A stretch of DNA of 15,600 bases from Candidatus Hadarchaeales archaeon (lineage in GTDB: Archaea > Hadarchaeota > Hadarchaeia > Hadarchaeales > Hadarchaeaceae): the NCBI GenBank assembly GCA_038823825.1, contig JAWBCC010000007.1, positions 1 through 15,600 on the forward strand. Direction: 5' to 3'. A model generated the notes under the pieces. That model had not been told where the DNA came from. It did not search any database and saw only the letters and a program-made list of their open reading frames with translations. The translations under genes were made by a program, and so were the position numbers. Positions within the stretch are counted from its first letter, which is position 1. Each line of letters opens with the position of its first letter. Positions 1-12,614 of this stretch are shown one piece after another.

Positions 1-2545
1 CCTCCGAGACTGAGCATCCAGTTGTGTCTATGTAGGCTGATCCTAGCGGACAGCTGAAGCTCCACGTTCCTTCACTCTTCGTGGCCTGCCACGTGTAGTG
101 GTTTCTCGTGCTGTCTGGGTCGCCACTGCCCAGAGAGCTCTCATAAGCCATCAAAGTTATGCTTGAGAGGTTCATATTTCCGTCCGAAACTGTTACAGTA
201 ACCGTGGTCCAGACATATGGCGTCCAGATTATTTCCGCTGGAACCACGCTCTGAACCTCTGGAGGAACGTTGGGCGTCTGCTGAATGGTAGCAGAAGCAG
301 GTAGCGCTGCAGCTGACGCGGTGTACGTCACCAAGAGATAGGGTCGGAGAGAAGCTGTTTCGTATTCTTTTGAATACCAATATGGCTCCGCGCTGTTCCA
401 GTCACTTCTCTCATCAACTGCTTTCACAGCAAGCGAAACGATTTTGTCGCCTGCGAACTGGTCTGAGACCCAGCTGGTGACATCCCAGCTCTCCCAGAAG
501 TTTTGCAATTTCGTCGGACGTGGAGAAACTCCCGTCCATCTGACGTAATCCACATAGAAAGTTCCGCTCGTTTCGATTGTAATCTTGAACAAACCATAAG
601 CTTGTCCCAGATTACTCCAATCGCTCGCCGGGATGGTTATCTCCTGCCATCTGTCAGTTCCATCCCATCCATAGTTACTTATATACTTGGTTTGCGTGGT
701 GCCCTGTGGCGCTTCTATCTCAACCTTTAGATTTGCAGTAGTTTTGACCCAGAATTTCAGGGCGGTCGCACTTGAGAGGTCTACGGTGTGATCATAGGGA
801 AGCCTGATAAACACTCCCCATCCAGCCCAGTTGCCCGTCGTTGAGGTCCGGAAACACCTTGTTCCTTCAGGAGAAGGCATGACATAATTCCGATCAAAAG
901 TCGCAGTACCTGATTCATCGTACCAAGTCAAGATTTCAGAGTTGACTGGGATACCGGCGTCAGAGTAGGGGGAAATCCCGACCCATCTAACCTTGTCGAT
1001 ATAGAATGTCCCGCTTGATTCAATCGTTATCTTGAATGGACTGTAAACTTGGTCGAGATTCTGCCATTCGCTGGCTGGAATAGTTATCTGTTGCCATCTG
1101 TCAGTTCCATCCCACCCATACCAGTTCAGATACTTTGTCTGGGTATTTCCCTTCGGCGCCTCGATTTCGATCTTCAGATTTGCCGGTGTTTTTACCCAGA
1201 ACCTTAAAGCTGTTGCTCCTGAGAGGTTTATGTAAACTGGCAGATCGAAGTGAAGTAGCAGAACGGTGTTCTCATTTGCTCCGAGATATCTCCCAGCTCC
1301 ATTGTTGTATCTGTAAGAAACTTCCTCCGAGCTTATCGCCTGATTCTCCACCCTAACCTCGTCTATTATCCCCTTGAAGAATCCCCAATCGCCATCGGCC
1401 TTTCTTCCCACGCATAGAGGCCTTGTGTTAGATGCTATGTTTCCCGTCCATGGTTCTGTGGCAACCAGAGAACCGTCGTAATAAAGCCTCAGATATGAGC
1501 CGTCAAATGTTCCAACTAGATGATGCCAGCCTGTTTGGAATGTTGTCTGATACGCAGCAAACGAGCCCCACTCCCCACCTCCTGGACCCACACCGAAAAC
1601 TATTTGGAACTGCCCGTTTTCATCAGTCTCTATATATAGCTCGTATCCCTTTGAATTATTGATGGCTCCTTCAAATTTCGAAACAACAACCTGACGACTA
1701 TTCTCGGCCGGCTGCTCGACAAAGTACGCCCAAGCTTCGACCGTCACTCTCGTCGGGTTTAGGCTTGCGCTGTCCTGAACGGAAACATACGCATTCGTTC
1801 CGTTGAATCCGAGAGCTCTATAGATTTTACCAGAATTTTCTGTAACACCGCCGTTAATTGTTCCATGATTGTTCAATCCGGAGTCGTCTCTCACATTCCT
1901 GTTGATGATAACACCCCAACCTGCCCAACTTCCAGCATTGGTGGATGTCTTGAAAGATTTACTGCCCTCTGGTGGAACTATACCGGTATATTCTACATCA
2001 AAGCTTCCTTGATCCCCCTCCGACCAGGTCCAGACGACAGAATCCGTTGGAATTCCCGCATCTGTGTATACATCATAATATGTGTCCGCAAAATACGTCT
2101 GTGCAACTCCTTCGAGATCTCCTATCGATGGCTGATTGTTCCAAGTTATCGTTGATTCGCTCCAAGCGTCGTTTGAGACCCGGTAGACCCCGATCTCTCT
2201 GTTGGTGTCTCCCGATTCGACGCCGCCATCATCATATCTGTAAAGGAAAAGTTTTGCCCCAGTTATTGTCGCATCACTCGGAATCTGTGAAAGATCAAAT
2301 TTGAGGAAAGATCTTCTGTACCATTCTGGATGCTGACCAGCGGCTGCAATATGGGATTCGCTCCCATAATTTGTGTTTGGCGTATGATTCTCTACCTTAG
2401 CATCAGCAACCGGAGAAAGCTTTACAGACCCATAAACTATTGTGGTCGCGGTACTCTGCGGGACTAGGAAAAGTTGCGGGGAAAGTGCAATTGATATTAA
2501 CATTATGGACAGACAAACCGAGAGGATTTGAGACTTTTTGAACAT
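1..2545 (-). CDS. Secreted multidomain lectin-like protein, 3'-truncated by the left window edge (848 codons visible). Absent from the supplied ORF track
   Basis: I translated the reverse strand by hand. From the ATG at 2545-2543 the frame stays open to position 2 with no stop. A GAGGT Shine-Dalgarno lies about 5 nt upstream. The N-terminus MFKKSQILSVCLSIMLISIALS looks like a Sec signal peptide. DNRLRE-type secreted-domain motifs are present: RSFLKFDLSQIPSDATITGAKLFLY, WSESTITWNNQP, WESWDVTSWV, RPYLLVTY. LamG/Laminin_G_3 motifs are present: GLNNHGTINGG, WHHLVGTFDGSYLRLYYDG, FKGIIDEVRVENQAIS. Two CBM-like copies end in TFYIDKVRW and TFYVDYVRW. The last ~80 aa (..NHYTWQATKSEGTWSFSCPLGSAYID..) are paralogous to the N-terminal domain of the 3803..5203 product. 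Confidence 0.85.
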   Translation of the reverse strand, partial: MFKKSQILSVCLSIMLISIALSPQLFLVPQSTATTIVYGSVKLSPVADAKVENHTPNTNYGSESHIAAAGQHPEWYRRSFLKFDLSQIPSDATITGAKLFLYRYDDGGVESGDTNREIGVYRVSNDAWSESTITWNNQPSIGDLEGVAQTYFADTYYDVYTDAGIPTDSVVWTWSEGDQGSFDVEYTGIVPPEGSKSFKTSTNAGSWAGWGVIINRNVRDDSGLNNHGTINGGVTENSGKIYRALGFNGTNAYVSVQDSASLNPTRVTVEAWAYFVEQPAENSRQVVVSKFEGAINNSKGYELYIETDENGQFQIVFGVGPGGGEWGSFAAYQTTFQTGWHHLVGTFDGSYLRLYYDGSLVATEPWTGNIASNTRPLCVGRKADGDWGFFKGIIDEVRVENQAISSEEVSYRYNNGAGRYLGANENTVLLLHFDLPVYINLSGATALRFWVKTPANLKIEIEAPKGNTQTKYLNWYGWDGTDRWQQITIPASEWQNLDQVYSPFKITIESSGTFYIDKVRWVGISPYSDAGIPVNSEILTWYDESGTATFDRNYVMPSPEGTRCFRTSTTGNWAGWGVFIRLPYDHTVDLSSATALKFWVKTTANLKVEIEAPQGTTQTKYISNYGWDGTDRWQEITIPASDWSNLGQAYGLFKITIETSGTFYVDYVRWTGVSPRPTKLQNFWESWDVTSWVSDQFAGDKIVSLAVKAVDERSDWNSAEPYWYSKEYETASLRPYLLVTYTASAAALPASATIQQTPNVPPEVQSVVPAEIIWTPYVWTTVTVTVSDGNMNLSSITLMAYESSLGSGDPDSTRNHYTWQATKSEGTWSFSCPLGSAYIDTTGCSVSE
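536..1243 (-). repeat. Intragenic duplication of a ~140-aa galactose-binding-like (CBM-type) domain within the 1..2545 ORF
   Basis: The protein copies align: ATALRFWVKTPANLKIEIEAPKGNTQTKYLNWYGWDGTDRWQQITIPASEWQNL..FKITIESSGTFYIDKVRW versus ATALKFWVKTTANLKVEIEAPQGTTQTKYISNYGWDGTDRWQEITIPASDWSNL..FKITIETSGTFYVDYVRW. At DNA level, tgccatctgtcagttccatccca is identical at about 1092-1114 and about 644-666. Confidence 0.75.
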
Positions 2546-2571
2546 CTCAACCTCGCTTTAAACTCAGATAC

Positions 2572-2594
2572 CACTCATTTTAATTTTTTCGAAA
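2572..2594 (-). promoter_or_regulatory. Candidate archaeal BRE/TATA promoter for the 1..2545 gene
   Basis: The minus strand reads TTTCGAAAAAATTAAAATGAGTGG. CGAAAA is BRE-like and AATTAAAA is an AT-rich TATA-like box centred about 36 nt upstream of the ATG at 2545. Four other intergenic regions share the same CG(A/G)AAA plus AT-box layout. Confidence 0.4.
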
Positions 2595-2611
2595 GAAGTA
2601 GGTGTTTTCGC

Positions 2612-2635
2612 ATTTTTAAGAAAATTTATTAAAAA
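2612..2635 (-). terminator. Candidate oligo-T transcription terminator after the 364-aa gene
   Basis: On the minus strand the TGA stop (2638-2636) is followed directly by TTTTTAATAAATTTTCTTAAAAATG. Archaeal termination typically uses T-runs. No strong hairpin is present. Confidence 0.4.
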
Positions 2636-3730
2636 TCATGAAAATTTCAAAATCACAGCTATTATTAAGATTAAGACGATTACCGAAACCACGGCAACAA
2701 CAGGCACAGTTGGAAATGGTTTCGGTTTCTCTACAATCAGCAGGCTGCTCAAACCATCGACAGAGATCGTGTGCTCGCCAGGCTCCTCGACGGATACTGT
2801 GAAATCTACTGTTGTTCTTTGTCCAGCCGCAAGCAACACTTCTCTCGTTTCAATCTGAACTCCGTCTATCTTCAGAGTTAGAGTGTAACTTCCAGAAATC
2901 GTTCCAACGTTTGCGACATCAACAGAAGCGGTCACTTGCTCACCTGGCCTGGCTCGATTTTTCGACAGCCGGAGATTTTCCACAGCAAATTCGGCTACCT
3001 CCTCCGAAACCGTTACTATTCGGGAGAATCCATCCACAGAAACCGTGTGGGTCCCAATCTGTTGTATCGAGAGAGAAAAGGTTACCGTTGCCGACTGACC
3101 TGGATTAAGCTCAACTTGTCTGTTGTCGATCTGTGTCCCGTTCAACCTCAAGATGACGTTGTAACTCCCGGCAATCGTTCCGAAGTTTACAACGCTAACC
3201 TGTACACTGAATGTTTCGCCCGGCCTGAGAGCCGATTTAGATATGCTGAGATTTTCCAGTCTGAACTGTGCCATTCCCACGATGTTCAAAATGGCGCTTA
3301 AATTATCCACGGAGATAGTGTGGGGTCCCAGCTGCAGAATGGATACTGTGAAAGAAACCGTTGTCGATTGTCCGGCTGCTAGATAGACAGTTAGGTTATC
3401 CACAACGTTGTTATCGACACGCAAAACTAACGTGTGTTGTCCATCTGCCGTGCCTACATTTTTCACAGTTACCTGAACAGTGACATTCTCGCCAGGAAGC
3501 GCGTTATCCTTAGATAGTTTCAAATTTTCTATCACAAACTGCGCAACATTCTCGGGCGGAGGTAGAGGTGGAGGCGGCGGGGGAGGAGGGATGTTTTCCG
3601 GCAAAACCGTCACCTGAACCTGAATAGGAATCTCTTGTGGGGCAATAACCGGCATGCAAAACAGAATGAGCATAAACACACTTGTTAAAATCGAGATCGC
3701 TCTTCTCATTTTTTCACCTTTTCTTTTCAT
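2636..3730 (-). CDS. Surface protein: signal peptide, polyproline hinge, three CARDB-like repeats and a C-terminal TM anchor. No recognisable catalytic domain
   Basis: ORF of 364 aa. MRRAISILTSVFMLILFCMPVIA is a signal peptide. The true start may be the second ATG at 3709, because GGTGA precedes it and the BRE/TATA at 3737-3753 predicts a transcription start near 3715. PPPPPPPPLPPP is a linker. There are three ~91-aa repeats of the form F.(I/L/V)ENL.(L/I)SK...PGE.(V/F)...V.V.N.G...G...L.L..(D/N)......V.L..GQ..TV.F..S....G.HT(I/V)SVD, which is a CARDB-type pattern. The C-terminal helix is VVAVVSVIVLILIIAVILKFS. Confidence 0.85.
   Translation of the reverse strand: MKRKGEKMRRAISILTSVFMLILFCMPVIAPQEIPIQVQVTVLPENIPPPPPPPPLPPPENVAQFVIENLKLSKDNALPGENVTVQVTVKNVGTADGQHTLVLRVDNNVVDNLTVYLAAGQSTTVSFTVSILQLGPHTISVDNLSAILNIVGMAQFRLENLSISKSALRPGETFSVQVSVVNFGTIAGSYNVILRLNGTQIDNRQVELNPGQSATVTFSLSIQQIGTHTVSVDGFSRIVTVSEEVAEFAVENLRLSKNRARPGEQVTASVDVANVGTISGSYTLTLKIDGVQIETREVLLAAGQRTTVDFTVSVEEPGEHTISVDGLSSLLIVEKPKPFPTVPVVAVVSVIVLILIIAVILKFS
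2732..3538 (-). repeat. Three tandem ~275-nt coding repeats (CARDB-like domains)
   Basis: The protein-level periodicity is clear, at aa 65-150, 156-241 and 248-333 of the 364-aa product. Divergence is typical of domain repeats rather than a recent DNA duplication. Confidence 0.8.
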
Positions 3731-3802: not shown

Positions 3803-5203
3803 TTATGGCTGTTGGGTTGAGAGCCAGATGTCATCCCAGAAGATGTCGGTTGATGGAACCGCAGTCGACGTTCTCTGAGCAGTTATGTAAATTCTTGCCC
3901 TTACCGCGTTCTCTGGAGCAGTAACTTGATAGGACACCTGTACCCAAGAGTCAAAAGCTGTTGCTGTGAAACCGCTGCCCGGTGTCTGTATGTAACCGCT
4001 ATCGTTTTCCCAGTATGGATACCATCTCACTCTGAAGAATAATCTATAGTTCTCCGGAAGAGCTCCACCTCCAGGATTCACTATATAGTAGTATCCCACA
4101 AGGTAGTACGTCGCGCCCGGGGTGAAGTTTGTAATGTTGTCTGAAGTCACGTATGAGCCATAACTGGTTGCCAGCTGTGTCTGCTTCGCCGAGTAACTAC
4201 CAGTTCTGGCGCGCTCACTAGATCTCGTCGAGTACGGTGGGGAGAACTGCCAGAAAGTGTCGTCCTCAAAGCTCGGGTTCTGAACCAAGTTCTGGGGTGA
4301 TGGGGGTACTATCAGAGTTTCCACTCTTACGTAAAACGTGTTTGTGTAGTTTCCTGCGACAACATTGCTCGGTATGTCCAGCCTCCACTGTATCTGTCTC
4401 TGAACACTTTCTCCATATGAAACATTCTTCCAGACGTTCTCGTACGTCGTGCTCAAGGAGACTTCTTCTTCACCTATCGCTTTTGCCGCGCTCGCGGGTA
4501 TTATATTTCCATTGGAGGTAAAGTTACCGGCCGCTTTGACTTTGATGGCGAAGTTCCGGTTTGAAGATACCGTCACAGTCATCGGACTCTGGGTTGCGTA
4601 AACGCTCTGCCCTTTGTAGCCGCTGAAGGAGAGGGTGTATGTGCTCAAAGACATCTCGAGGTAGACCTGAACCATAATCGCGTTGATATTCTCCAAATAG
4701 TTGTCTAAGCCAACGTTGTCTACTGCTCTAACATAAAGATCCCAAAATCCTGAAGCCGCGATCCTCGCAAGTTTCACCCGGAAGATTGCAGTGTATGTGT
4801 TTTCGGTCGGGTTCTCCTGAACTGACGAGTTGATGTTATCAATATAGTTCGCTCCAAGCGGACAGCTGAATCGCCAAGTTCCCGTGCTTTTCGAAGCCAC
4901 CCATGTGTAGTGGTTTCTGACGTTGTCGGGTGCCGCGTTATCGAGAGAGTTTTCGTAGGCCATTAGATAAATATTTTCCAAGTTCATCTCGTTGTCGTAA
5001 ACCACCACTACAATATTTGACCAGATGTTTGGAATTATCTCGACATTTTCTGGAGAAACCATGAGAACTGACGGTGGGTAGTATGGAATCTCCCAGATCT
5101 CTACTTCGACGTTAACCTGCTGCTCCTGATCCTGAGAGAGAACCGCCGGAATCATCGAAATGCTGATCAACAGTCCTAATAGAAGAGACACACTCTTCTT
5201 CAT
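3803..5203 (-). CDS. Secreted non-catalytic protein with two uncharacterised beta-sandwich domains (D1 'HYTW', D2 'QWRLDIP') and a C-terminal CBM4_9-like carbohydrate-binding domain. No membrane anchor
   Basis: ORF of 466 aa with an ATG start and a GGAGG Shine-Dalgarno 8 nt upstream. The signal peptide is MKKSVSLLLGLLISISMIPAVLS/QDQ. The C-terminal ~160 aa begin NLVQNPSFEDDTFWQF, continue ..ARTGSYSAK..PGATYYL.., and end FWDDIWL, which matches the CBM_4_9 (galactose-binding-like) pattern. The sequence carries 7 N-x-S/T sequons. D1 and D2 have paralogs at both window edges. Confidence 0.85.
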   Translation of the reverse strand: MKKSVSLLLGLLISISMIPAVLSQDQEQQVNVEVEIWEIPYYPPSVLMVSPENVEIIPNIWSNIVVVVYDNEMNLENIYLMAYENSLDNAAPDNVRNHYTWVASKSTGTWRFSCPLGANYIDNINSSVQENPTENTYTAIFRVKLARIAASGFWDLYVRAVDNVGLDNYLENINAIMVQVYLEMSLSTYTLSFSGYKGQSVYATQSPMTVTVSSNRNFAIKVKAAGNFTSNGNIIPASAAKAIGEEEVSLSTTYENVWKNVSYGESVQRQIQWRLDIPSNVVAGNYTNTFYVRVETLIVPPSPQNLVQNPSFEDDTFWQFSPPYSTRSSERARTGSYSAKQTQLATSYGSYVTSDNITNFTPGATYYLVGYYYIVNPGGGALPENYRLFFRVRWYPYWENDSGYIQTPGSGFTATAFDSWVQVSYQVTAPENAVRARIYITAQRTSTAVPSTDIFWDDIWLSTQQP

Positions 5204-5276: not shown

Positions 5277-8200
5277 TTATTTGATTAGGAAAAACTTGAA
5301 AATCGCGAAAATGGCGCCTCCAATGGCTATCACAACTCCCACGACCCAAAGTGGAAAACCTGAAGGAACCACTTCCACGCTCTCGCTGAGCCCGTCCACA
5401 TTCACGGTGTGTGTTCCACTCTCATCGATTGACAAAGTGAAAAACACACATACAGACTCCCCCGCTGGAATCTCCAGAATTTTCTCATCTTTCTCGACGT
5501 TGTCAACAGCAAGCTTTATTGTTGTCTGCCCGGTCTCGTCACCGACATTTTTAACCCAGACATAAACCTTGAACTTTTCGCCGGGTGAAACTCTTCTCTT
5601 GGAAAGGCTCATGTTCTCGATGACGAAGACGGCCGGAGACCTCACAGTCAGCAGCAAGTTCTCCGACCACATTTTGCCGCCTCCGCTTACCGTCAGGCGC
5701 AGAGTGTACGTTCCCGCTTGGGCATTCGACCCAACCGAAACCGTCAGAGTTGATGTAAACGATGGAACTCCGGAAGACTGAGAAAAGGAAGCAGAGGAAT
5801 CTTGAGGAAGACCGGTCACCGAAAGATACATCGGTAGTTTAATTCCCGAAAGATAACCAATGGTAATCGTGAACGTCACAGATTCGCCGCGAAGAACCGT
5901 CCTTGATCTCGGAGAGACCGAAAGAGATATCTGTGGCGGCTGAACATTACCGAGATAGAAAATGAATTTCCCGCTTTCCCTTCTGTTTCCCATGCGATCT
6001 ACTGCAACAACAAACCATTCGTAGAAATTTTCGCCCAGTGCCGTGTTGTAAGTTGTGGCCGTCACATTTTCCACATTTTGTCCATTTATCCAGACTTCAT
6101 AATGGGAGAGCCCAGAAATTTCGTCCGAGGTAGCCTGCCACTGAAGGATGGGTGACTCTGAGAGGTGCGAACCGTTCTCCGGCGAAATTAGAGAAAACTG
6201 AAGAGGTGGTGTGAAATCCGCTACAAAGGTTTTCACAAGGCCCATCACCACCTTCCCGCTGTTGTTGTCCATAGCGACTGCGCGGAATTCGTAGGTTGAA
6301 TTTTCCATGATCCCCGAGACTATCGCCGAGAACCATTCACGCCAGCTCATTGTCCGTTTAGTGGTCTGGCTCCAAGAACCGCCCGCCGGTCTCCATTCCA
6401 ACCAGACCACAGTTTCCTGGTTATCAAGATCTTCAAGAAAACCGGAAAGAAGAACCGAACCAGATTGAACAGCCAGAGGATTTCCTGTCGTTGAGATTAT
6501 GGGAACCGCCTGTCCGTAAAAGGCGAAACTCGAAACTGATGGTGAGTGTGTTACATTTTCCGAGCGCAATGAAAACGTTACTCTCACAAATCTCGTCTGG
6601 GGAAGAGAGAGCGGAATTTTCTCAACACCTCCACTTAGAGTTATCCATCCGGTATTTTCCGCTGCCGTGGACCCGTCAAGTGAAGTCTCTACAAGAATCT
6701 TTACTTCTTCTCCCTGCGCGATCTTCGAGGATACTTCGAGAAATTCTAAAGACGACGTTTGGCCAAGATCGATCCAGTTTGAGATCCACTGACCGGATGT
6801 TTTGACTTCAGACAGCCCAGAATATAAAATCTTTATCTCGCTTTCAGACAGAGGTCTCCCGAAAACCATCACTTCATCGATCAATCCGTCGAAGCCCTCA
6901 CCTCCTCCGGGTTGATTTCCAATTGTGAACGAATTGGTATTTGAATTCAACCTCCCGAAGGAAGCCGGAGCTTCCCCAAGTCGAACCGCGTTGTCTTTGT
7001 AAATTCTGATTTTGCTCCCATCCCAGACGGCCGCTATTAGACTCCACGAATTGTTTGGAAAGTTTTGATCGGGGACCTCAAGCGTGTACTTGTTTCCAGC
7101 AGAATCCCAGACCATAAACGCGGTTGTTCCCCTAGCGCTCTCATTCACTCTCAACAGATAAACAATGTCTTTTTTCACGATTTCTCCGTTGTGCGGCTTC
7201 GAGCGCGGATTTATCCAAGCAACTATCGAAAGCCCAGAGAGTCCTTCCAAGATATCTTTATCTCCGACCTCTACTCTCGCCGTCCCTCCGGGAAAATCTA
7301 AAGCTCCGCCGATCCGTCCAGTAACCCATGATGCGCCAATAACCGTCCCGTGATTGCCGTAGCCGCTAGAGTCGTAAGCGGTTGCCCCAGATCCTTCATC
7401 GAATTTCCACCATCCGATTGGATCGAGCTTTATCAATTCGATCCCACCATATTGTTTGATTAAGAGATTTCCAGAGGTTGATCCAATTGACCACTCCTCC
7501 TGCGTATCGACAGAAAGAAGACTCTCCCTTTCTCTTACTGGAGCTCTAGCCAATCCAACGTACATGTCCGCTGCGCCGTAGTAAAGATACCAAATATTAT
7601 CAACTCTGACGAGACCTTCAGCGAAAACGCAATCCACGACCTGACCTGTCCTTTCCCAAGAGAACTCTGGTCGCATGAATGGCTCCTCGCATCTCGCCAC
7701 AATTTTGGTCGGGTCTCTTAACGAAAAAATGACCCAGCCAACTCTCATCATTCCTCCCGAGCCGAGCGGAGCATCAAGCGAGTTGTAAAGGAGGAATATT
7801 CCATTTTGAAGAACGAACGGTGCTGGTCCGGGTTCTATTGTAAGAGCATCAAAATATCCCCCGCGCCTTCGCATAACGACACCCCCAAGTGTCCAGTCTG
7901 TCAAGTTTTCGGAAAAGGCGTAGTAGAGATCGCCACCTCCAGCTCCCGCCTCCAGATACATCCAATATTTTCCATTTATCTTCACGGGGACTATAGCGCC
8001 GGATTTTGTCCACAGGCTTGTGTCTCTGAACGCAAGTCCAACCTTTTCCCAATTTTCTAAATTAGCGGATCTGGCAAGGGCAAGCCTCGCTGTGGTCCCA
8101 TCATAAGCCGTATACGTCATCCAGAAAGTTTCACCGATCTTCACAATTCTTGGGTCTTCGCATCCTCCACCGAGCTCATACCATTCTGTTGGAGCTATTG

Positions 8201-8924
8201 CTGGATTCGGTCTACGCTGCCAGTTTATTCCATCTGTGCTTGTGGCCATGCCGATTACGGAAGGTCCTCCATGTGAAGCCTGCGCCCTATAAAACATGTA
8301 GAAAACTCCATTGTGATAGGCAACAGCGGGATTATATGCGGCATACCCATCAAACCCGCTCCCACTTGGCCCAAAAACCGGAGAATTTTCCTTTACCCAT
8401 TCGTTCTCGAAGAATGGGGGTTTCGACTCTGCCTTTTTCACCGGAATGTTTTCCCGCCGGTTTACCTTGAATCTCTCCGGAAATTCCCTGCTTGATCCAT
8501 CCACACCAACCCAGACGCTCCAATTTCCAGGAGATGCTTTCCTATCAAGTTTTACTCTAAATGTCCATAGACCGGTGGAAACAGAGGATTTTGACGGATC
8601 GATATATCCAAATCCTGGACCTACCTCGGAGAACCCTTCACCCGACCGCCATCTGAATGTGTAGTGCTCCTCCAAGGAATCCCGAGCTTCAGGAGAAACT
8701 CCAGCTTTGTATAACTTGAGCAGAACCTCACTCGCGTTACCCGAAATCTGAACGCCTACGGAAAACCACACTTCCGGATCTATGTTGTCAAGAATTATTA
8801 TCGCGGATATCTGTGGAGCTGATTGCGCAAAAACAGTTGCTTCCGAAGTTGAAGCGATAAGAGTAAAAGCAGCTAAGAAAAAGACGAGTATCCTCCCGGA
8901 CTTCAAATCCGTCATCGTCTTCAC
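5277..8924 (-). CDS. Secreted, C-terminally membrane-anchored GH130-family (DUF377, beta-mannoside phosphorylase/hydrolase fold) multidomain protein
   Basis: ORF of 1215 aa. The start is either GTG at 8924, overlapping the upstream stop by 4 nt, or ATG at 8915, which is preceded by GAGTGA.
Domains, by aa:
- Signal peptide ..LIASTSEATVFA/QS.
- 37-155: D1-like domain (EEHYTFRW..GYIDPSKSSV..WTFRVKL..NWSVWVGVD).
- 172-462: GH130 motifs (YNPAVAYHNGVFYMFYRAQ, GMATSTDGINW, GCEDPRIV, WMTYTAYDG, YYGAADMYVGLA).
- 503-702: LamG (WWKFDEGSGATAYDSSGYGNHG..FDGLIDEVMVFGRPLSESEI).
- About 705-1095: about four further beta-sandwich, Fn3-like or Ig-like domains.
- 1099-1186: CARDB.
- TM helix WVVGVVIAIGGAIFAIF plus KFFLIK tail. 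Confidence 0.9.
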   Translation of the reverse strand: MKTMTDLKSGRILVFFLAAFTLIASTSEATVFAQSAPQISAIIILDNIDPEVWFSVGVQISGNASEVLLKLYKAGVSPEARDSLEEHYTFRWRSGEGFSEVGPGFGYIDPSKSSVSTGLWTFRVKLDRKASPGNWSVWVGVDGSSREFPERFKVNRRENIPVKKAESKPPFFENEWVKENSPVFGPSGSGFDGYAAYNPAVAYHNGVFYMFYRAQASHGGPSVIGMATSTDGINWQRRPNPAIAPTEWYELGGGCEDPRIVKIGETFWMTYTAYDGTTARLALARSANLENWEKVGLAFRDTSLWTKSGAIVPVKINGKYWMYLEAGAGGGDLYYAFSENLTDWTLGGVVMRRRGGYFDALTIEPGPAPFVLQNGIFLLYNSLDAPLGSGGMMRVGWVIFSLRDPTKIVARCEEPFMRPEFSWERTGQVVDCVFAEGLVRVDNIWYLYYGAADMYVGLARAPVRERESLLSVDTQEEWSIGSTSGNLLIKQYGGIELIKLDPIGWWKFDEGSGATAYDSSGYGNHGTVIGASWVTGRIGGALDFPGGTARVEVGDKDILEGLSGLSIVAWINPRSKPHNGEIVKKDIVYLLRVNESARGTTAFMVWDSAGNKYTLEVPDQNFPNNSWSLIAAVWDGSKIRIYKDNAVRLGEAPASFGRLNSNTNSFTIGNQPGGGEGFDGLIDEVMVFGRPLSESEIKILYSGLSEVKTSGQWISNWIDLGQTSSLEFLEVSSKIAQGEEVKILVETSLDGSTAAENTGWITLSGGVEKIPLSLPQTRFVRVTFSLRSENVTHSPSVSSFAFYGQAVPIISTTGNPLAVQSGSVLLSGFLEDLDNQETVVWLEWRPAGGSWSQTTKRTMSWREWFSAIVSGIMENSTYEFRAVAMDNNSGKVVMGLVKTFVADFTPPLQFSLISPENGSHLSESPILQWQATSDEISGLSHYEVWINGQNVENVTATTYNTALGENFYEWFVVAVDRMGNRRESGKFIFYLGNVQPPQISLSVSPRSRTVLRGESVTFTITIGYLSGIKLPMYLSVTGLPQDSSASFSQSSGVPSFTSTLTVSVGSNAQAGTYTLRLTVSGGGKMWSENLLLTVRSPAVFVIENMSLSKRRVSPGEKFKVYVWVKNVGDETGQTTIKLAVDNVEKDEKILEIPAGESVCVFFTLSIDESGTHTVNVDGLSESVEVVPSGFPLWVVGVVIAIGGAIFAIFKFFLIK

Positions 8925-9545: not shown

Positions 9546-10391
9546 CTAATGAGCTTCTTCCTCCTCCATTATCGCCATCATGAAGTATCTATGGAGGAGA
9601 ACGTAGATAACCAGCAGAGGCAAAACGGTCAGAATCGCACCTGCCATAAATAGATTCCACTTGGCGAGTCCTCCCATCATTCCGAAGAGTCCTACAGTCA
9701 CGGGCATCGCCTGAGACTCTACTCCACCGAGAACAAGACCAAAGAGAAAGTCGTTCCAAATCGAAGTGAACTGATAAATCATCACGGAAATGATGGCTGG
9801 TTTAGACGCCGGTAGAATTACCTTTCTGTAGATTTCCCAGTCGCTCGCTTTTCTTTTCTTCAATTCCCTTATTTTTTTGTCTGGAATGTGCGTGTAGAAG
9901 TTTCTAAAGAGAAGTGTGCAGATCGGAATTCCGTAAACTGTGTGAACGAAAACCATGCCGGGAAGAGTATACGTGAGATTCAGTTCGCTCATCGTCCTGA
10001 AAAGGGGAAAGACAATCGTCGTGTAAGGTAGGAATGTTCCTGCGACCAAAACCATGAAGAGCAACTCCTTATACCTGAACTTCTGCTTGGAGAATACATA
10101 ACCCATCCAAGATCCTATGATTATAGAGCAGAGAACCGCACCTGTCGTGAAGACTAGACTGTTGAGTAGTGGTCTCCCGAGTTTTTCTATGGCTTCTCCG
10201 TAAGCTTCCAAGGTCGGACTCCGGGGTGGCGCGAGCGGATTTGTGGTCCCTATTTCCGCCCAAGGCTTCAAAGAAGTGACTAAAGCGACCCAAATTGGGA
10301 GAAGGAAAATGAAGGTTACCACTATCAGAATCGCGTATATCAAAAGTCTTTTCCAATTCTTTTTGATATAATTCAAAACTTTCGCGATCAT
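9546..10391 (-). CDS. Carbohydrate ABC transporter permease (CUT1, MalG-like)
   Basis: ORF of 281 aa with six predicted hydrophobic helices. The BPD_transp_1-type loop reads ..KASDWEIYRKVILPASKPAIISVMIYQFTSIWNDFLFGLVL. The ATG overlaps the upstream stop (ATGA). Confidence 0.9.
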   Translation of the reverse strand: MIAKVLNYIKKNWKRLLIYAILIVVTFIFLLPIWVALVTSLKPWAEIGTTNPLAPPRSPTLEAYGEAIEKLGRPLLNSLVFTTGAVLCSIIIGSWMGYVFSKQKFRYKELLFMVLVAGTFLPYTTIVFPLFRTMSELNLTYTLPGMVFVHTVYGIPICTLLFRNFYTHIPDKKIRELKKRKASDWEIYRKVILPASKPAIISVMIYQFTSIWNDFLFGLVLGGVESQAMPVTVGLFGMMGGLAKWNLFMAGAILTVLPLLVIYVLLHRYFMMAIMEEEEAH

Positions 10392-11242
10392 CTATGTCCC
10401 CTGTATGAGAACCAGACGTATGGGAGAACTATCGCCAAAACTATTCCGACGAGAATGTTACCAATCACTGCCCCGTAGGCGACGTTCATTTTCTGGTAAG
10501 CTTCCACATAAACCAAAATTGGGAGGGTGTAGTAAGAGCCTGGAGGATACCCCCGAGCCATCGTCCACAGGAGATCAAAGGATGCTTTGAGAACAAAAAC
10601 GAAGATGACCACCGCACAACTCAGCAGAGGTATTCTCAACCTTGGAAACTCGACTTTCCAGAATATCTGCCACCAGTTCATCCCTTTTTTCCTTGCATTT
10701 TCTATTTCTTTTCTCGGAACAGATTTGAGACCGGCCAGCAAGACCAACGCAGAGTAACCTGAGAACTGCCAGATTATCGGAATCAAAACTGAAGCGAGTA
10801 TTGCGGATGAGCTTATCCAGTCGCGAGCAAAGAAACCCAATCTTATCGACCTCAGAAGTGAGTTTATCGCACCATCCGGCTGAAACATCCAAGACCATAT
10901 GACCCCAGTCACAACGAGTGAGAATGCAAACGGAAGTAGGAAGATTATGGTGAATATTTTTATCCCCTTTACTCGCTGGTTGAGCAAAAATGCGAGAAAT
11001 AGTCCTGCGGCAAGACAAAGCGGAATTGCGGAGAAGAGAATGAACGTGTTGAGAAGAGATCTCCCGAAGAGATCGCTTTTTATTACGGCAGAGTAGTTGC
11101 TGAGACCCACAAAATTGTACGAGGGAATCGCTCCCTTCCAATCGGTGAAGGAAATCACAACGTTCCAAGTGACCATTCCGTAAACGAAGTAGGCTGCCAG
11201 AACAAAGAGAACCAACACGGTTAGGAGTGTTGTTCTCTCCAA
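10388..11242 (-). CDS. Carbohydrate ABC transporter permease (CUT1, MalF-like)
   Basis: ORF of 284 aa and polytopic. The conserved loop reads EIENARKKGMNWWQIFWKVEFPRLRIPLL. It has a TTG start with GGGAG 5 nt upstream, 13 nt after the binding-protein stop. Confidence 0.9.
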   Translation of the reverse strand: MERTTLLTVLVLFVLAAYFVYGMVTWNVVISFTDWKGAIPSYNFVGLSNYSAVIKSDLFGRSLLNTFILFSAIPLCLAAGLFLAFLLNQRVKGIKIFTIIFLLPFAFSLVVTGVIWSWMFQPDGAINSLLRSIRLGFFARDWISSSAILASVLIPIIWQFSGYSALVLLAGLKSVPRKEIENARKKGMNWWQIFWKVEFPRLRIPLLSCAVVIFVFVLKASFDLLWTMARGYPPGSYYTLPILVYVEAYQKMNVAYGAVIGNILVGIVLAIVLPYVWFSYRGHR

Positions 11243-11255
11243 GAATCTCCCTCTA

Positions 11256-12614
11256 TCAGACGATGTCCCACGATATCGTGTAGGTTCCGGAGCGTATCAG
11301 AGAAGCGATTGTTGATGCCGAAGCGCTCACATTCTGGAACTCCACAAACTCGCTTATCTTCGGGTGAAGGTCGTACAGGATTTCGTTCGGAATGGCTATC
11401 CCGTGAGTGAAGCTCGGATAAAACTTAGTCTGCGGATTCCTCAGAGCAGAAGCCGCGTTCCTCGCATAACTGTTGGTGTATATATTGTCTGGAACATCAC
11501 GATAGGGGGAAACCGAACCTTTGACCGGGTTGAAGCTTGATTGAACCTCTAATGTCGTGTAAGAATAAACCCACCTTAGACCTCCAATCACATTACCTTT
11601 CTTCGGAACAACAAAACCGTCAACCACTAGACCAAACAAGTTTTCCGTTCCTGGCGCCAAAAAGATGTCGTACTGAACTCCAAGCGTCCATCCTCTCTGC
11701 TCGAAGTAAGCGTTGGCCCAATCGCCATGCACGTACATCGCAACACGACCGTTAAAGAGCTGACCGCAAGCCTCCGCCCAATTTCTAGCACGGTGATCAT
11801 CTGGAACATAACTCAAATATCTTTTGAATAACTGGAGGATTGGCTCCAGCTCTTCCGCCGTAACCGTTCCGTTTATGAACTTCTCATAGGTTTGTAGGCT
11901 ATATCCAGCCATTATTGTTTCAAATATTTGGGTGGCAGCCCAGTCAGTCCCCATTCCGTCACCAACCTCTAGCGGATAGATGTTCAGACCTCTCTCTTGT
12001 GCCCTCTGCTTGATTAAGTCACATAGATTGAAGAATTCTTCCCAAGTTCTAGGTGGATTCGTCATATCTATTCCGAGTTGCTGTAGGAGTTGCTTGTTGT
12101 AGAAAACTACATTCGTTCTGTGTACCCCAACTGGAACCAAATAGTAATTCCCATCAAGCTTGCACATCTTCTCTACTATAGCCGGTACACGTTCGGCAAT
12201 GTTCGCATACTCCCACAGATCGTTAAGATTTCTCAGATAGTATCCTCCGTATCTAGCTGTTTCGTAGCCGGGATGAGACTGGAAGGAACCCGGAATGTTT
12301 GTCCCGGCCACAAGAGAGGGAAGAATCCTCGGCGGCATGTTTCCACCGGCGCCTCCGGGCACGGGGACGGGCGTGAGAGTCATGTTCGGATAAAGCTGTT
12401 CCATCTTGTTCTTAAGAACTCTAAAACCTTGTTCCTCGACATCTATTGTCCACCAGTGGGCTACGCTCACGTTTCCACTTGCCTGATAATTTTCCACAAT
12501 TTCTTGAACATTCTCAGTAACTTCTGCCGGTCCTTCACGTCTCGTCACGACCAAAACCAATCCAGCAATTACAAGAATACCTATGACCACTGCGAGTATT
12601 TGCGTTATCTTCAA
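11256..12614 (-). CDS. Extracellular sugar-binding protein of the ABC transporter (family 1 / CUT1) with an N-terminal membrane anchor
   Basis: ORF of 452 aa. The N-terminal helix is ILAVVIGILVIAGLVLVV, followed by a long soluble domain of SBP_bac_1 size and character. TTG is the only possible start, because an in-frame stop lies 9 codons upstream with no other start codon between. GGAGG lies 8 nt upstream. The gene sits directly upstream of the two permeases. Confidence 0.8.
   Translation of the reverse strand: MKITQILAVVIGILVIAGLVLVVTRREGPAEVTENVQEIVENYQASGNVSVAHWWTIDVEEQGFRVLKNKMEQLYPNMTLTPVPVPGGAGGNMPPRILPSLVAGTNIPGSFQSHPGYETARYGGYYLRNLNDLWEYANIAERVPAIVEKMCKLDGNYYLVPVGVHRTNVVFYNKQLLQQLGIDMTNPPRTWEEFFNLCDLIKQRAQERGLNIYPLEVGDGMGTDWAATQIFETIMAGYSLQTYEKFINGTVTAEELEPILQLFKRYLSYVPDDHRARNWAEACGQLFNGRVAMYVHGDWANAYFEQRGWTLGVQYDIFLAPGTENLFGLVVDGFVVPKKGNVIGGLRWVYSYTTLEVQSSFNPVKGSVSPYRDVPDNIYTNSYARNAASALRNPQTKFYPSFTHGIAIPNEILYDLHPKISEFVEFQNVSASASTIASLIRSGTYTISWDIV

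Follow-up and report, generated by a model that had tools for sequence, protein, structure and literature searches.

A GH130 protein of a Hadarchaeales archaeon as a candidate surface-tethered, inverting exo-β-mannosidase

Organization of the locus and of the GH130 protein

We have analysed a window of 15,600 nucleotides, i.e., positions 1 to 15,600 of contig JAWBCC010000007.1, and have focused on the gene of a 1212-aa protein that carries a GH130 domain. Every gene in this window lies on the minus strand with short gaps between neighbours, in the order of a GH92 α-mannosidase, a CUT1 solute-binding protein with two permeases, a sugar isomerase, the GH130 protein, a secreted 466-aa protein, a triple-CARDB protein, and the start of a CBM96/LamG protein (Table 1). 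The original prediction, made from the letters alone, had described an archaeal GH130 domain that faces outward and is probably a hydrolase rather than a phosphorylase. With regard to the host, the deposited record (MEM1689922.1, named 'LamG-like jellyroll fold domain-containing protein') agrees, as it comes from a Candidatus Hadarchaeales archaeon.

The deposited start of the GH130 gene is the ATG at 8915, and the GTG at 8924 is an alternative that would add three residues (open reading frame, ORF, 5277–8924). The gene is real, since the identical 1212-aa product is found on three independent NCBI contigs of metagenome-assembled genomes, one of which, JAWBDA010000007.1 of GCA_038822855.1, corresponds to the window, and since its 90% cluster holds eight members from NCBI, JGI, ENA, and Logan. 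The match to PF04041 (Glyco_hydro_130) has an E-value of 1.2e-54, scores 185.9 bits where 26 are required, spans profile positions 17–313 of 320, and corresponds to residues 171–465 in the numbering of the GTG-start ORF. It is essentially the same domain as that originally placed at 7539–8411. In the AlphaFold2 (AF2) model of residues 29–485, the predicted local distance difference test score (pLDDT) is above 94 over the GH130 propeller.

There are only two hydrophobic segments in the 1212-aa protein by hydropathy, at residues 4–29 and 1179–1212. The first belongs to a signal peptide with K/R in its n-region, an h-region, and the ending VFA↓Q, and the second forms the C-terminal transmembrane (TM) segment. 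As a signal peptide is combined with a single C-terminal TM segment, the protein is predicted to be of type I, with all that lies between the two outside the cell, which is the arrangement that had been proposed for the GH130 module. The sequon density of the protein is like that of other secreted proteins in the locus. A PGF-CTERM / archaeosortase A sorting signal was considered and rejected, since the C-terminal 47 aa gave no NCBIfam match at E-values up to 1, despite the 'SGFPL' motif before the TM segment. The letters 'GFPL' stand directly before the C-terminal TM segment both here (PSGFPLWVVG; window 5298–5369, minus strand) and in P0166 (KTGFPLPVAIAG), a relative treated below, and bring PGF-CTERM signals to mind.

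The N-terminal domain at 8436–8825 has no match in the Pfam scan, and ~110 aa of it are homologous to residues 56–158 of the neighbouring secreted 466-aa protein (BLASTP E-value 3e-8, 32% identity). Behind the propeller follows a LamG domain, which is possibly a glycan-binding module. For the C-terminal 724 aa, AF2 gives an all-beta model with a mean pLDDT of 62.7, in which confidence is moderate for LamG, high for one Ig-like module, and low for the remainder; this model was used for secondary structure and domain count only.

Table 1 Features of the GH130 protein and of the surrounding genes. Coordinates are those of the window, and residues are numbered in the 1212-aa protein.
Feature	Coordinates	Strand	Basis or remark
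Gene of the predicted surface-anchored GH130 protein, 1212 aa	5277–8915	minus	ORF list and translation
Signal peptide, residues 1–30, MTDLKSGR / ILVFFLAAFTLIASTS / EATVFA↓Q	8826–8915	minus	hydropathy segment 4–29; cleavage site set by eye
N-terminal domain, ~130 aa, probably Ig-like	8436–8825	minus	low confidence in AF2 model
GH130 catalytic domain, five-bladed β-propeller, residues 168–462	7530–8414	minus	PF04041
Asn195		 	conserved; BT3780 N74
Arg210		 	conserved; BT3780 R89
Glu253-Asp254	8154–8159	minus	conserved; BT3780 Glu141-Asp142
Lys304-Ser305	8001–8006	minus	Lys304 conserved; BT3780 Lys199, β-1,2 linkage determinant
Strand-loop-strand KYWMYLE-AGAGGG-DLYYAFS	7905–7970	minus	alignments and spacing from catalytic Asp
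Glu322	7950–7952	minus	replaces phosphate-binding Arg of GH130 phosphorylases
Glu361 in TIEPGP	7833–7835	minus	BT3780 Glu268 (LTECGPP), the stronger of two candidate bases; Gly in phosphorylase-type relatives
Asn378 in LLYNS	7782–7784	minus	replaces phosphate-binding His (UhgbMP His231; IYH in Teth514_1788)
Met390	7746–7748	minus	at BT3780 Tyr302 position (contacts O1 of −1 mannose); Tyr302 not kept
Phe431		 	conserved; BT3780 F344
Asp450	7566–7568	minus	conserved; BT3780 Asp363 (binds O4/O6 of −1 mannose, essential)
LamG / concanavalin-A-like jelly-roll (Laminin_G_3)	6831–7289	minus	PF13385, E 6.6e-23; AF2 pLDDT 70–89
Run of all-beta Ig/Fn3-like modules	5640–6773	minus	AF2 secondary structure all-beta; pLDDT 84–93 in last module, low elsewhere
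Big_7 match inside this run	6039–6194	minus	26.2 bits; weak, above cut-off as fragment scan
Confident Ig-like domain inside this run	5640–5933	minus	AF2
CARDB domain	5397–5624	minus	PF07705; 25.1 bits whole protein, 30.3 bits fragment; cut-off 22.7
C-terminal membrane anchor GFPLWVVGVVIAIGGAIFAIF, short tail KFFLIK, stop codon	5277–5360	minus	hydropathy segment 1179–1212
GH92 α-mannosidase, 914 aa	12617–15361	minus	PF07971, E 4.5e-184
CUT1-type ABC importer	9546–12614	minus	solute-binding protein 11256–12614; permeases 10388–11242 and 9546–10391
D-lyxose/D-mannose-family sugar isomerase, cupin, 182 aa	8921–9469	minus	PF07385; NCBI name
Secreted 466-aa protein	3803–5203	minus	sub-threshold CBM_4_9 match at C-terminus (E 4e-4)
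Anchored protein, three CARDB repeats behind poly-proline linker PPPPPPPLPPP	2636–3730	minus	start differs by caller: 364 aa vs 357 aa in NCBI
CBM96 / Disaggr_repeat / LamG gene, cut by contig end	1–2503	minus	1001 aa on the longer contig JAWBEW010000003.1; large, secreted, glycan-related

Residues of the active site

Published work offers a yardstick for telling GH130 phosphorylases from hydrolases. Cuskin et al. 2015 (PMC4599007) have described BT3780 and BACOVA_03624 of Bacteroides, which lack the basic phosphate ligands, as inverting β-1,2-mannosidases that use glutamate bases, in accordance with the original prediction. In BT3780, Asp142 is the acid, while Glu227 and Glu268 are redundant bases: the E268Q mutant keeps 0.4% and E227Q 3% of the activity, and the double mutant is dead. 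Lys199 is the β-1,2 determinant, the residues E141, D142, K199, and D363 are essential, and Tyr302 touches O1 (PMC4599007). According to Li et al. 2020 (PMC7660257, Table 2), phosphorylases have an Arg (R168 in UhgbMP) and a His (H231) but lack a base, and none of the characterised ones carries a signal peptide, whereas hydrolases have a D/E base, neither the Arg nor the His, and signal peptides. The same authors use an E/K pair to predict β-1,2 specificity, a rule that rests on few characterised enzymes. Moreover, a 2025 paper in ACS Catal. takes the Arg as the determinant of phosphorylase versus hydrolase activity, describes Glu227 of BT3780 as clashing with phosphate, and names GH130_3 alone as the hydrolase subfamily.

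We have read the residue columns of the Hadarchaeales protein (the query hereafter) from HMMER alignments to BT3780, BACOVA_03624, BDI_3141, and the phosphorylase Teth514_1788 (9fj8). The invariant GH130 catalytic Asp (D142 in BT3780, D104 in UhgbMP) and the −1 ligands Asn74, Asp363, and Phe344 are present as Asp254, Asn195, Asp450, and Phe431, and all the residues whose mutation kills BT3780 are kept. Asp254 occupies the proton donor position, inside GGCEDPRI, where the EDPR at 8148–8159 is intact as originally reported. Glu253 is the +1 subsite ligand that makes up half of the β-1,2 'E/K' pair.

The residues around phosphate give another picture. NKDASLFPEKINGKYVMLHR of the query aligns with TKSGAIVPVKINGKYWMYLE of Teth514_1788, and the conserved Arg has become a Glu, namely Glu322. 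This replacement after the GKY strand had been proposed from the peptide encoded at 7929–8015, whose reverse-strand translation is exactly LWTKSGAIVPVKINGKYWMYLEAGAGGGD, and both the alignment and the spacing bear it out. Counted from the catalytic Asp, the key positions are found at +50, +68, +124, and +196 in the query, at +50, +68, +121, and +189 in Teth514_1788, and at +46, +64, +127, and +200 in UhgbMP. Glu322 is the residue at +68, the same as the Arg of Teth514_1788, and R168 of UhgbMP is that at +64. Since the spacings match among the three proteins, the column assignments are secure. The strand-loop-strand with Glu322 (model positions 291–298 and 304–310) is a confident β-hairpin in the AF2 model. 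In the column after the +1 Lys, where phosphorylase-type relatives have Asp or Asn, the query has Ser305 as in hydrolase-type ones.

The entire phosphate site is thus converted, beyond the loss of a single ligand, i.e., Arg to Glu322, His to Asn378, and K-[D/N] to K-S. The comparison with GH130 phosphorylases and hydrolases, which had been suggested as a check, finds the phosphate-binding residues not conserved. Because the phosphate ligands are lost and the Glu268-equivalent and a signal peptide are present, the domain would be a hydrolase rather than a phosphorylase by the criteria of Cuskin et al. 2015 and Li et al. 2020, and we hold this to be very probable. The claim of an extracellular GH130 hydrolase is therefore supported at the sequence level, and on a broader basis than the Arg, as the His is replaced too and Ser305 and Glu361 are present.

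Family-wide survey of GH130 relatives

The sample of relatives consists of the 120 nearest 90%-clusters plus the best 150 matches obtained when 1.84 billion 50%-representatives were searched exhaustively, with the key columns read from phmmer alignments. Among the 341 aligned domains, 42 are phosphorylase-type, and all 42 read K-[DN], Arg, Gly (in the E268 column), and His. Another 244 are hydrolase-type, where Arg never occurs (0/244) and 232 read K-[SA]. As this type was defined by the Glu268-equivalent Glu plus Asn, the invariance of Glu268 across the hydrolase-type classes is by construction. The query signature, K-S/E/E/N, is on the hydrolase side. Lys199 is kept throughout the 120 nearest 90%-clusters, which, with one or two exceptions, also have the Glu268-equivalent Glu together with Asn for His. 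Phosphorylase-type relatives score no higher than 204 bits, and every nearer relative has the Glu268-equivalent Glu and nearly always Asn at the His position. In addition, a hydrophobic N-terminal leader is seen in 160 of 212 hydrolase-type proteins, versus 0 of 12 phosphorylase-type ones. Overall, the published rule holds in this independent sample as well, and the query falls with the hydrolases.

In a rough neighbour-joining (NJ) tree, the query clade is located among the hydrolase-type sequences and outside the BT3780 cluster, and the distances favour BT3780 slightly (1.05 vs 1.31). Monophyly of the phosphorylase-type sequences was recovered in 0 of 50 bootstraps of this tree. As the overall scaffold is no nearer to the Bacteroides hydrolases than to the GH130_6 phosphorylases, we have filed the query as a hydrolase-type GH130, not as a demonstrated GH130_3 member.

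These observations bear on the opposite possibility, that the protein is a phosphorylase or transglycosylase using external phosphate, with the backbone of the Gly-rich loop binding the anion in place of the Arg. Although Gly-rich loops can bind anions and the overall scaffold is nearest to the Teth514 β-1,2 phosphorylases, the protein has lost the two basic ligands as well as the D/N ligand, and two carboxylates stand in the pocket; Glu227 of BT3780 has been described as clashing with phosphate. Besides, a leader peptide is found in no phosphorylase-type relative, and the nearest relatives are all hydrolase-type, so that we regard a phosphate-using enzyme as highly improbable.

Within the hydrolase type, the base-loop classes co-vary with the Tyr302 column: x-G-[DE] goes with Tyr, the long loop Y-L-A-D with Tyr, the long loop x-G-E with Asn/His, and E-x3-GGGD with Met/Leu. 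Several archaeal and metagenomic proteins (from Thermoplasmata archaeon UBA9212, L003; P0168–P0170; P0001) even combine two hydrolase-type GH130 domains in tandem, whose base-loop classes differ.

As for the architecture, a 2020 survey of GH130 reported no member containing a carbohydrate-binding module, and very few multimodular ones (with GH2, GH43, GH92, GH127 or GH142; GH130-GH130; GH130-GT81). The original prediction had called the architecture of the query new for the family, and it is indeed absent from that survey. However, multimodular GH130s are many in metagenomes (with type IX secretion system sorting domains, SGNH esterases, TPR/NACHT, F5/8-type C, GH2, or nucleoside hydrolases), and three more lineages carry the GH130-LamG cassette, so the query is not a singleton.

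The clade of the Hadarchaeales protein

Among the sampled relatives, the motif M-Y-[LY]-E-x3-GGGD-L-[YF]-Y is found only in the query cluster, P0314 (987 aa), P0166/P0388 (3213 aa), and P0167 (2575 aa). Here P0166 and P0167 surfaced only in the exhaustive search of representatives. Homologue searches with the full-length protein and with its C-terminal part, in which GH130 or LamG words prevailed, did not return these two, and the C-terminal one did not return the cluster of the query either. The base loop of the query reads M-Y-L-E322-AGAGGG-D329-L-Y-Y, while it is M-Y-[FW]-G-[DE] in BT3780-like proteins and most archaeal relatives, and M-Y-Y-L-A-D in a large bacterial group. Exactly the proteins with the E-x3-GGGD motif have Met or Leu at the Tyr302 position, and their clade is recovered in all of 50 NJ bootstraps. 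Since Glu322 and GGGD are invariant over four lineages that are 47–67% identical, they should be functional.

Only P0166 and P0167 share the ~1000-aa cassette of Ig-like, GH130, LamG, and beta-sandwich modules at ~50% identity, while P0314 has it in a shortened form, and LamG follows the GH130 domain in every clade member. P0314 (67% identity) has the same design from signal peptide to TM segment as the query. P0166, which comes from a JGI metagenome, contains the cassette at residues 28–1058 (49% identity to the query), and goes beyond the query with a degenerate second GH130-like domain (1350–1685), fn3, a complete GH92 (2257–2965), CARDB, and a TM anchor in one polypeptide. P0167 differs from the query by DUF2341 and Big_5. 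None of P0314, P0166, and P0167 is characterised or described in the literature searched. At the level of domain composition, the GH130/GH92 fusion in P0166 provides a Rosetta-stone link to the separate GH92 gene of our window, whose product is predicted to be tethered.

On a longer Hadarchaeales contig (L001, JAWBEW010000003.1), the region upstream of GH92 (1–1469 and 1580–3442) encodes a 1364-aa protein with LamG, a faint GH130 match, and CARDB, and a 620-aa DUF2341 protein. P0166 and P0167 contain the modules of these two proteins in fused form, and the degenerate second GH130-like domain may have its separate equivalent in the 1364-aa protein.

Such degenerate domains raise the question whether the GH130 module of the query could itself be a weak or dead lectin-like domain for glycan binding, by which the surface protein, or GH92 as its partner, would be targeted to mannans. 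The query has kept neither Tyr302 nor the Glu227 position, the giant relatives do carry a second GH130-like domain that is clearly degenerate, and the activity of BT3780 is itself modest (PMC4599007). The second domains, however, provide an example of actual decay: neither has kept Lys199 (Trp or Ala stands there), and one of them, that of P0167, has Tyr for the Glu268-equivalent. In the first domains, by contrast, all the BT3780-essential residues and Glu361 are kept throughout the four lineages, along with the invariant Glu322 and GGGD. This conservation indicates selection on the active site, and a lectin-like role for the module is quite improbable.

Gene neighbourhood

Both glycosidases of the locus, GH130 and GH92, are predicted to be surface-tethered. 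By sequence and hydropathy, the GH92 protein likewise carries a signal peptide, and at its C-terminus a CARDB-like module and a TM anchor, whose tail RMKKGRRR is strongly basic; it is likely the partner enzyme of the GH130 protein. The isomerase gene is directly upstream of the GH130 gene in the same orientation, and its product has no hydrophobic segment by hydropathy. The order of isomerase, GH130, and unknown gene recurs beside P0314 (locus L083). No ATPase gene for the CUT1 importer was found in the cluster or in the 24 kb of L001 examined.

The original prediction had also argued that phosphorolysis outside the cell would release mannose 1-phosphate, which a CUT1 importer is unlikely to take up. 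Taken alone, this argument is weak: Ugp, which imports glycerol 3-phosphate, is itself a CUT1 system, so the importer class leaves phosphate esters possible, which is a point in favour of a phosphorylase. But for the downstream step the locus has an aldose-ketose isomerase and not a phosphomannomutase, which speaks against a phosphorylase and points in the same direction as the original conclusion.

Proposed function and its significance

Based on the above analyses, our best explanation, to which we assign a probability of roughly 0.8, is that the GH130 domain is the catalytic module of a surface-tethered inverting exo-β-mannosidase, i.e., a hydrolase and not a phosphorylase. By analogy with BT3780, the proton would come from Asp254, probably relayed via O3 of the substrate, and C1 would be attacked from the α face by water in place of phosphate. 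Glu361 would activate this water with the assistance of Glu322, in the pocket where the Arg and His of phosphorylases hold phosphate. The +1 mannose would be held by Lys304 and Glu253, from which β-1,2 specificity is predicted, and the E/K rule makes us lean towards this linkage.

BT3780 works in an α-mannan locus, where it removes β-1,2-mannose caps for α-mannosidases (PMC4599007). As in such Bacteroides mannan loci, the GH130 enzyme may take off β-linked caps, and the tethered GH92 enzyme α-mannose, from a mannose-rich glycan outside the cell. The adjacent CUT1-type ATP-binding cassette (ABC) system would then import the freed mannose or short mannosides, and the adjacent isomerase, presumably cytoplasmic, would turn mannose into fructose.

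Several points weigh against this explanation. Some D-lyxose isomerases are poor on mannose. When the GH130 model was searched with Foldseek, the best match was the phosphorylase Teth514_1788 (9fj8; E-value 2e-27, template modelling score 0.89, root-mean-square deviation 2.1 Å), and the scores to the GH130_3 hydrolases 5a7v, 3qc2, and 3taw were 0.72–0.77. The NCBIfam model of β-1,2-mannobiose phosphorylase gives 181 bits versus 166 for the BT3780 model, both far under the cut-offs; for the latter, NF058598 BetMansidBT3780, the 550-bit cut-off for equivalog-level similarity is not reached. The Glu227 column of BT3780 has no acid in the query, since the clade has its Glu one residue earlier, followed by a 5-residue Gly-rich loop. 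The Tyr302 position is occupied by Met390 (each of the five clade members has Met or Leu), while it is Tyr in 195 of 244 hydrolase-type domains. With the water-activating site remodelled in this way, the activity could be altered or weak. Moreover, the orientation of Glu322 is taken from the strand register only, and its part as a co-base is putative.

It is also conceivable that the enzyme is a hydrolase but not a β-1,2-mannosidase, acting on another linkage, aglycone or sugar, e.g., β-mannose of an archaeal or bacterial envelope glycan, by means of the remodelled −1/O1 site (Glu322, GGGD, Met390) and the LamG/Ig modules. Among the hydrolase-type subgroups, the residue at the Tyr302 position changes together with the base loop, with a combination unique to the query clade, and the clade is well separated (50/50 bootstraps) at ~32–33% identity to the characterised enzymes, which are few as a basis for the E/K rule. 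A GH130 with reported xylanase activity, AH2, exists as well, whose paper gives no subfamily or residue data to compare. On the other hand, the E/K pair, Arg210, Asn195, Asp450, and Phe431 are kept as in enzymes active on β-1,2-mannosides, and the GH92 fusion, the neighbourhood, and the mannose-type isomerase point to mannosides. Weighing these together, we consider a specificity other than β-1,2-mannoside rather unlikely.

Tentatively, the query, P0314, P0166, and P0167 might constitute an undescribed lineage of GH130 hydrolases, with a distinct water-activating site and an obligate LamG partner, which would serve as the β-mannosidase arm of an archaeal surface-tethered system for mannan harvesting, functionally analogous to a polysaccharide utilization locus (PUL) and made up of GH130, GH92, binding modules, the ABC importer, and the isomerase. 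If this were true, the substrate or linkage specificity might differ from that of the Bacteroides β-1,2-mannosidases, and an extracellular glycan-foraging lifestyle would be suggested for Hadarchaeales.

For the inverting exo-β-mannosidase that we favour, the hydrolase call follows published criteria and so is not new, and the switch from phosphorylase to hydrolase in GH130 is already established. What is new is the archaeal host, the ~1000-aa cassette that is conserved in only four lineages and GH92-fused in one, and the remodelled base site (Glu for Arg, GGGD, and Met/Leu for Tyr302). In our literature searches, no paper mentioning both Hadarchaeales and GH130 was found, and nothing relevant for Hadarchaeales and glycoside hydrolases. 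As far as we have found, this would be the first archaeal GH130 hydrolase candidate that is both surface-tethered and multi-modular. A Glu placed exactly at the Arg position would be a third way to fill the phosphate pocket, and could inform the evolution and engineering of the switch, while the GH130/GH92 fusion and the operon may offer a model of mannoglycan foraging by Hadarchaeales. The protein, whose source setting is a hot spring, is potentially a thermostable β-mannosidase for glycan analysis.

Comparison with known systems

The nearest sequence neighbours, at 44–54% identity, are uncharacterised GH130s of the hydrolase type, which come from thermophilic archaea and soil bacteria (e.g., Desulfurococcaceae WFO75059.1 and proteins of Thermoprotei and Acidobacteriota). 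Like the query, they have the K-S / E-P-G-P / Y-N signature and N-terminal leaders, and some of them are named 'beta-1,2-mannosidase' by JGI. Unlike it, they are single-domain proteins of 310–370 aa with the base loop F-G-D or Y-L-A-D and Tyr302 kept, and a GH92/ABC context is missing around the gene of the closest one.

Teth514_1788 and Teth514_1789 (PDB 9FJ8 and 7FIP), the GH130_6 β-1,2-(oligo)mannan phosphorylases of Thermoanaerobacter, are similar to the query in the compact propeller, the E/K +1 pair, and the active-site spacing. They are, however, cytoplasmic and single-domain, with K-D, Arg, Gly, and His in place of K-S, Glu322, Glu361, and Asn378 in the query. They are phosphate-dependent, with weak GDP-Man transferase activity, according to the 2025 ACS Catal. 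paper. In phmmer searches of PDB, the query hits BT3780 (5a7v) and Teth514_1788 (9fj8) alike, with E-values of ~3e-43.

The Bacteroides GH130_3 β-1,2-mannosidases BT3780 and BACOVA_03624 (PDB 5A7V and 3QC2) resemble the query in their active site. They are likewise secreted and without the phosphate Arg and His; they have in common with it the acid (Asp142), the base at Glu268, the pair Glu141/Lys199, and also Asn74, Arg89, and Asp363; and they too belong to a mannan-degrading locus with α-mannosidases. The differences lie in the overall identity (~32–33%), in the Bacteroides loop insertions, which are missing from the query, and in the base site, where BT3780 has the W-G-E227 arrangement and Tyr302 while the query has Glu at the phosphorylase-Arg position, the GGGD loop, and Met for Tyr302. 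Finally, BT3780 and BACOVA_03624 are single-domain proteins of ~380 aa, whereas the query is an archaeal multi-domain protein of 1212 aa that is predicted to be TM-anchored.

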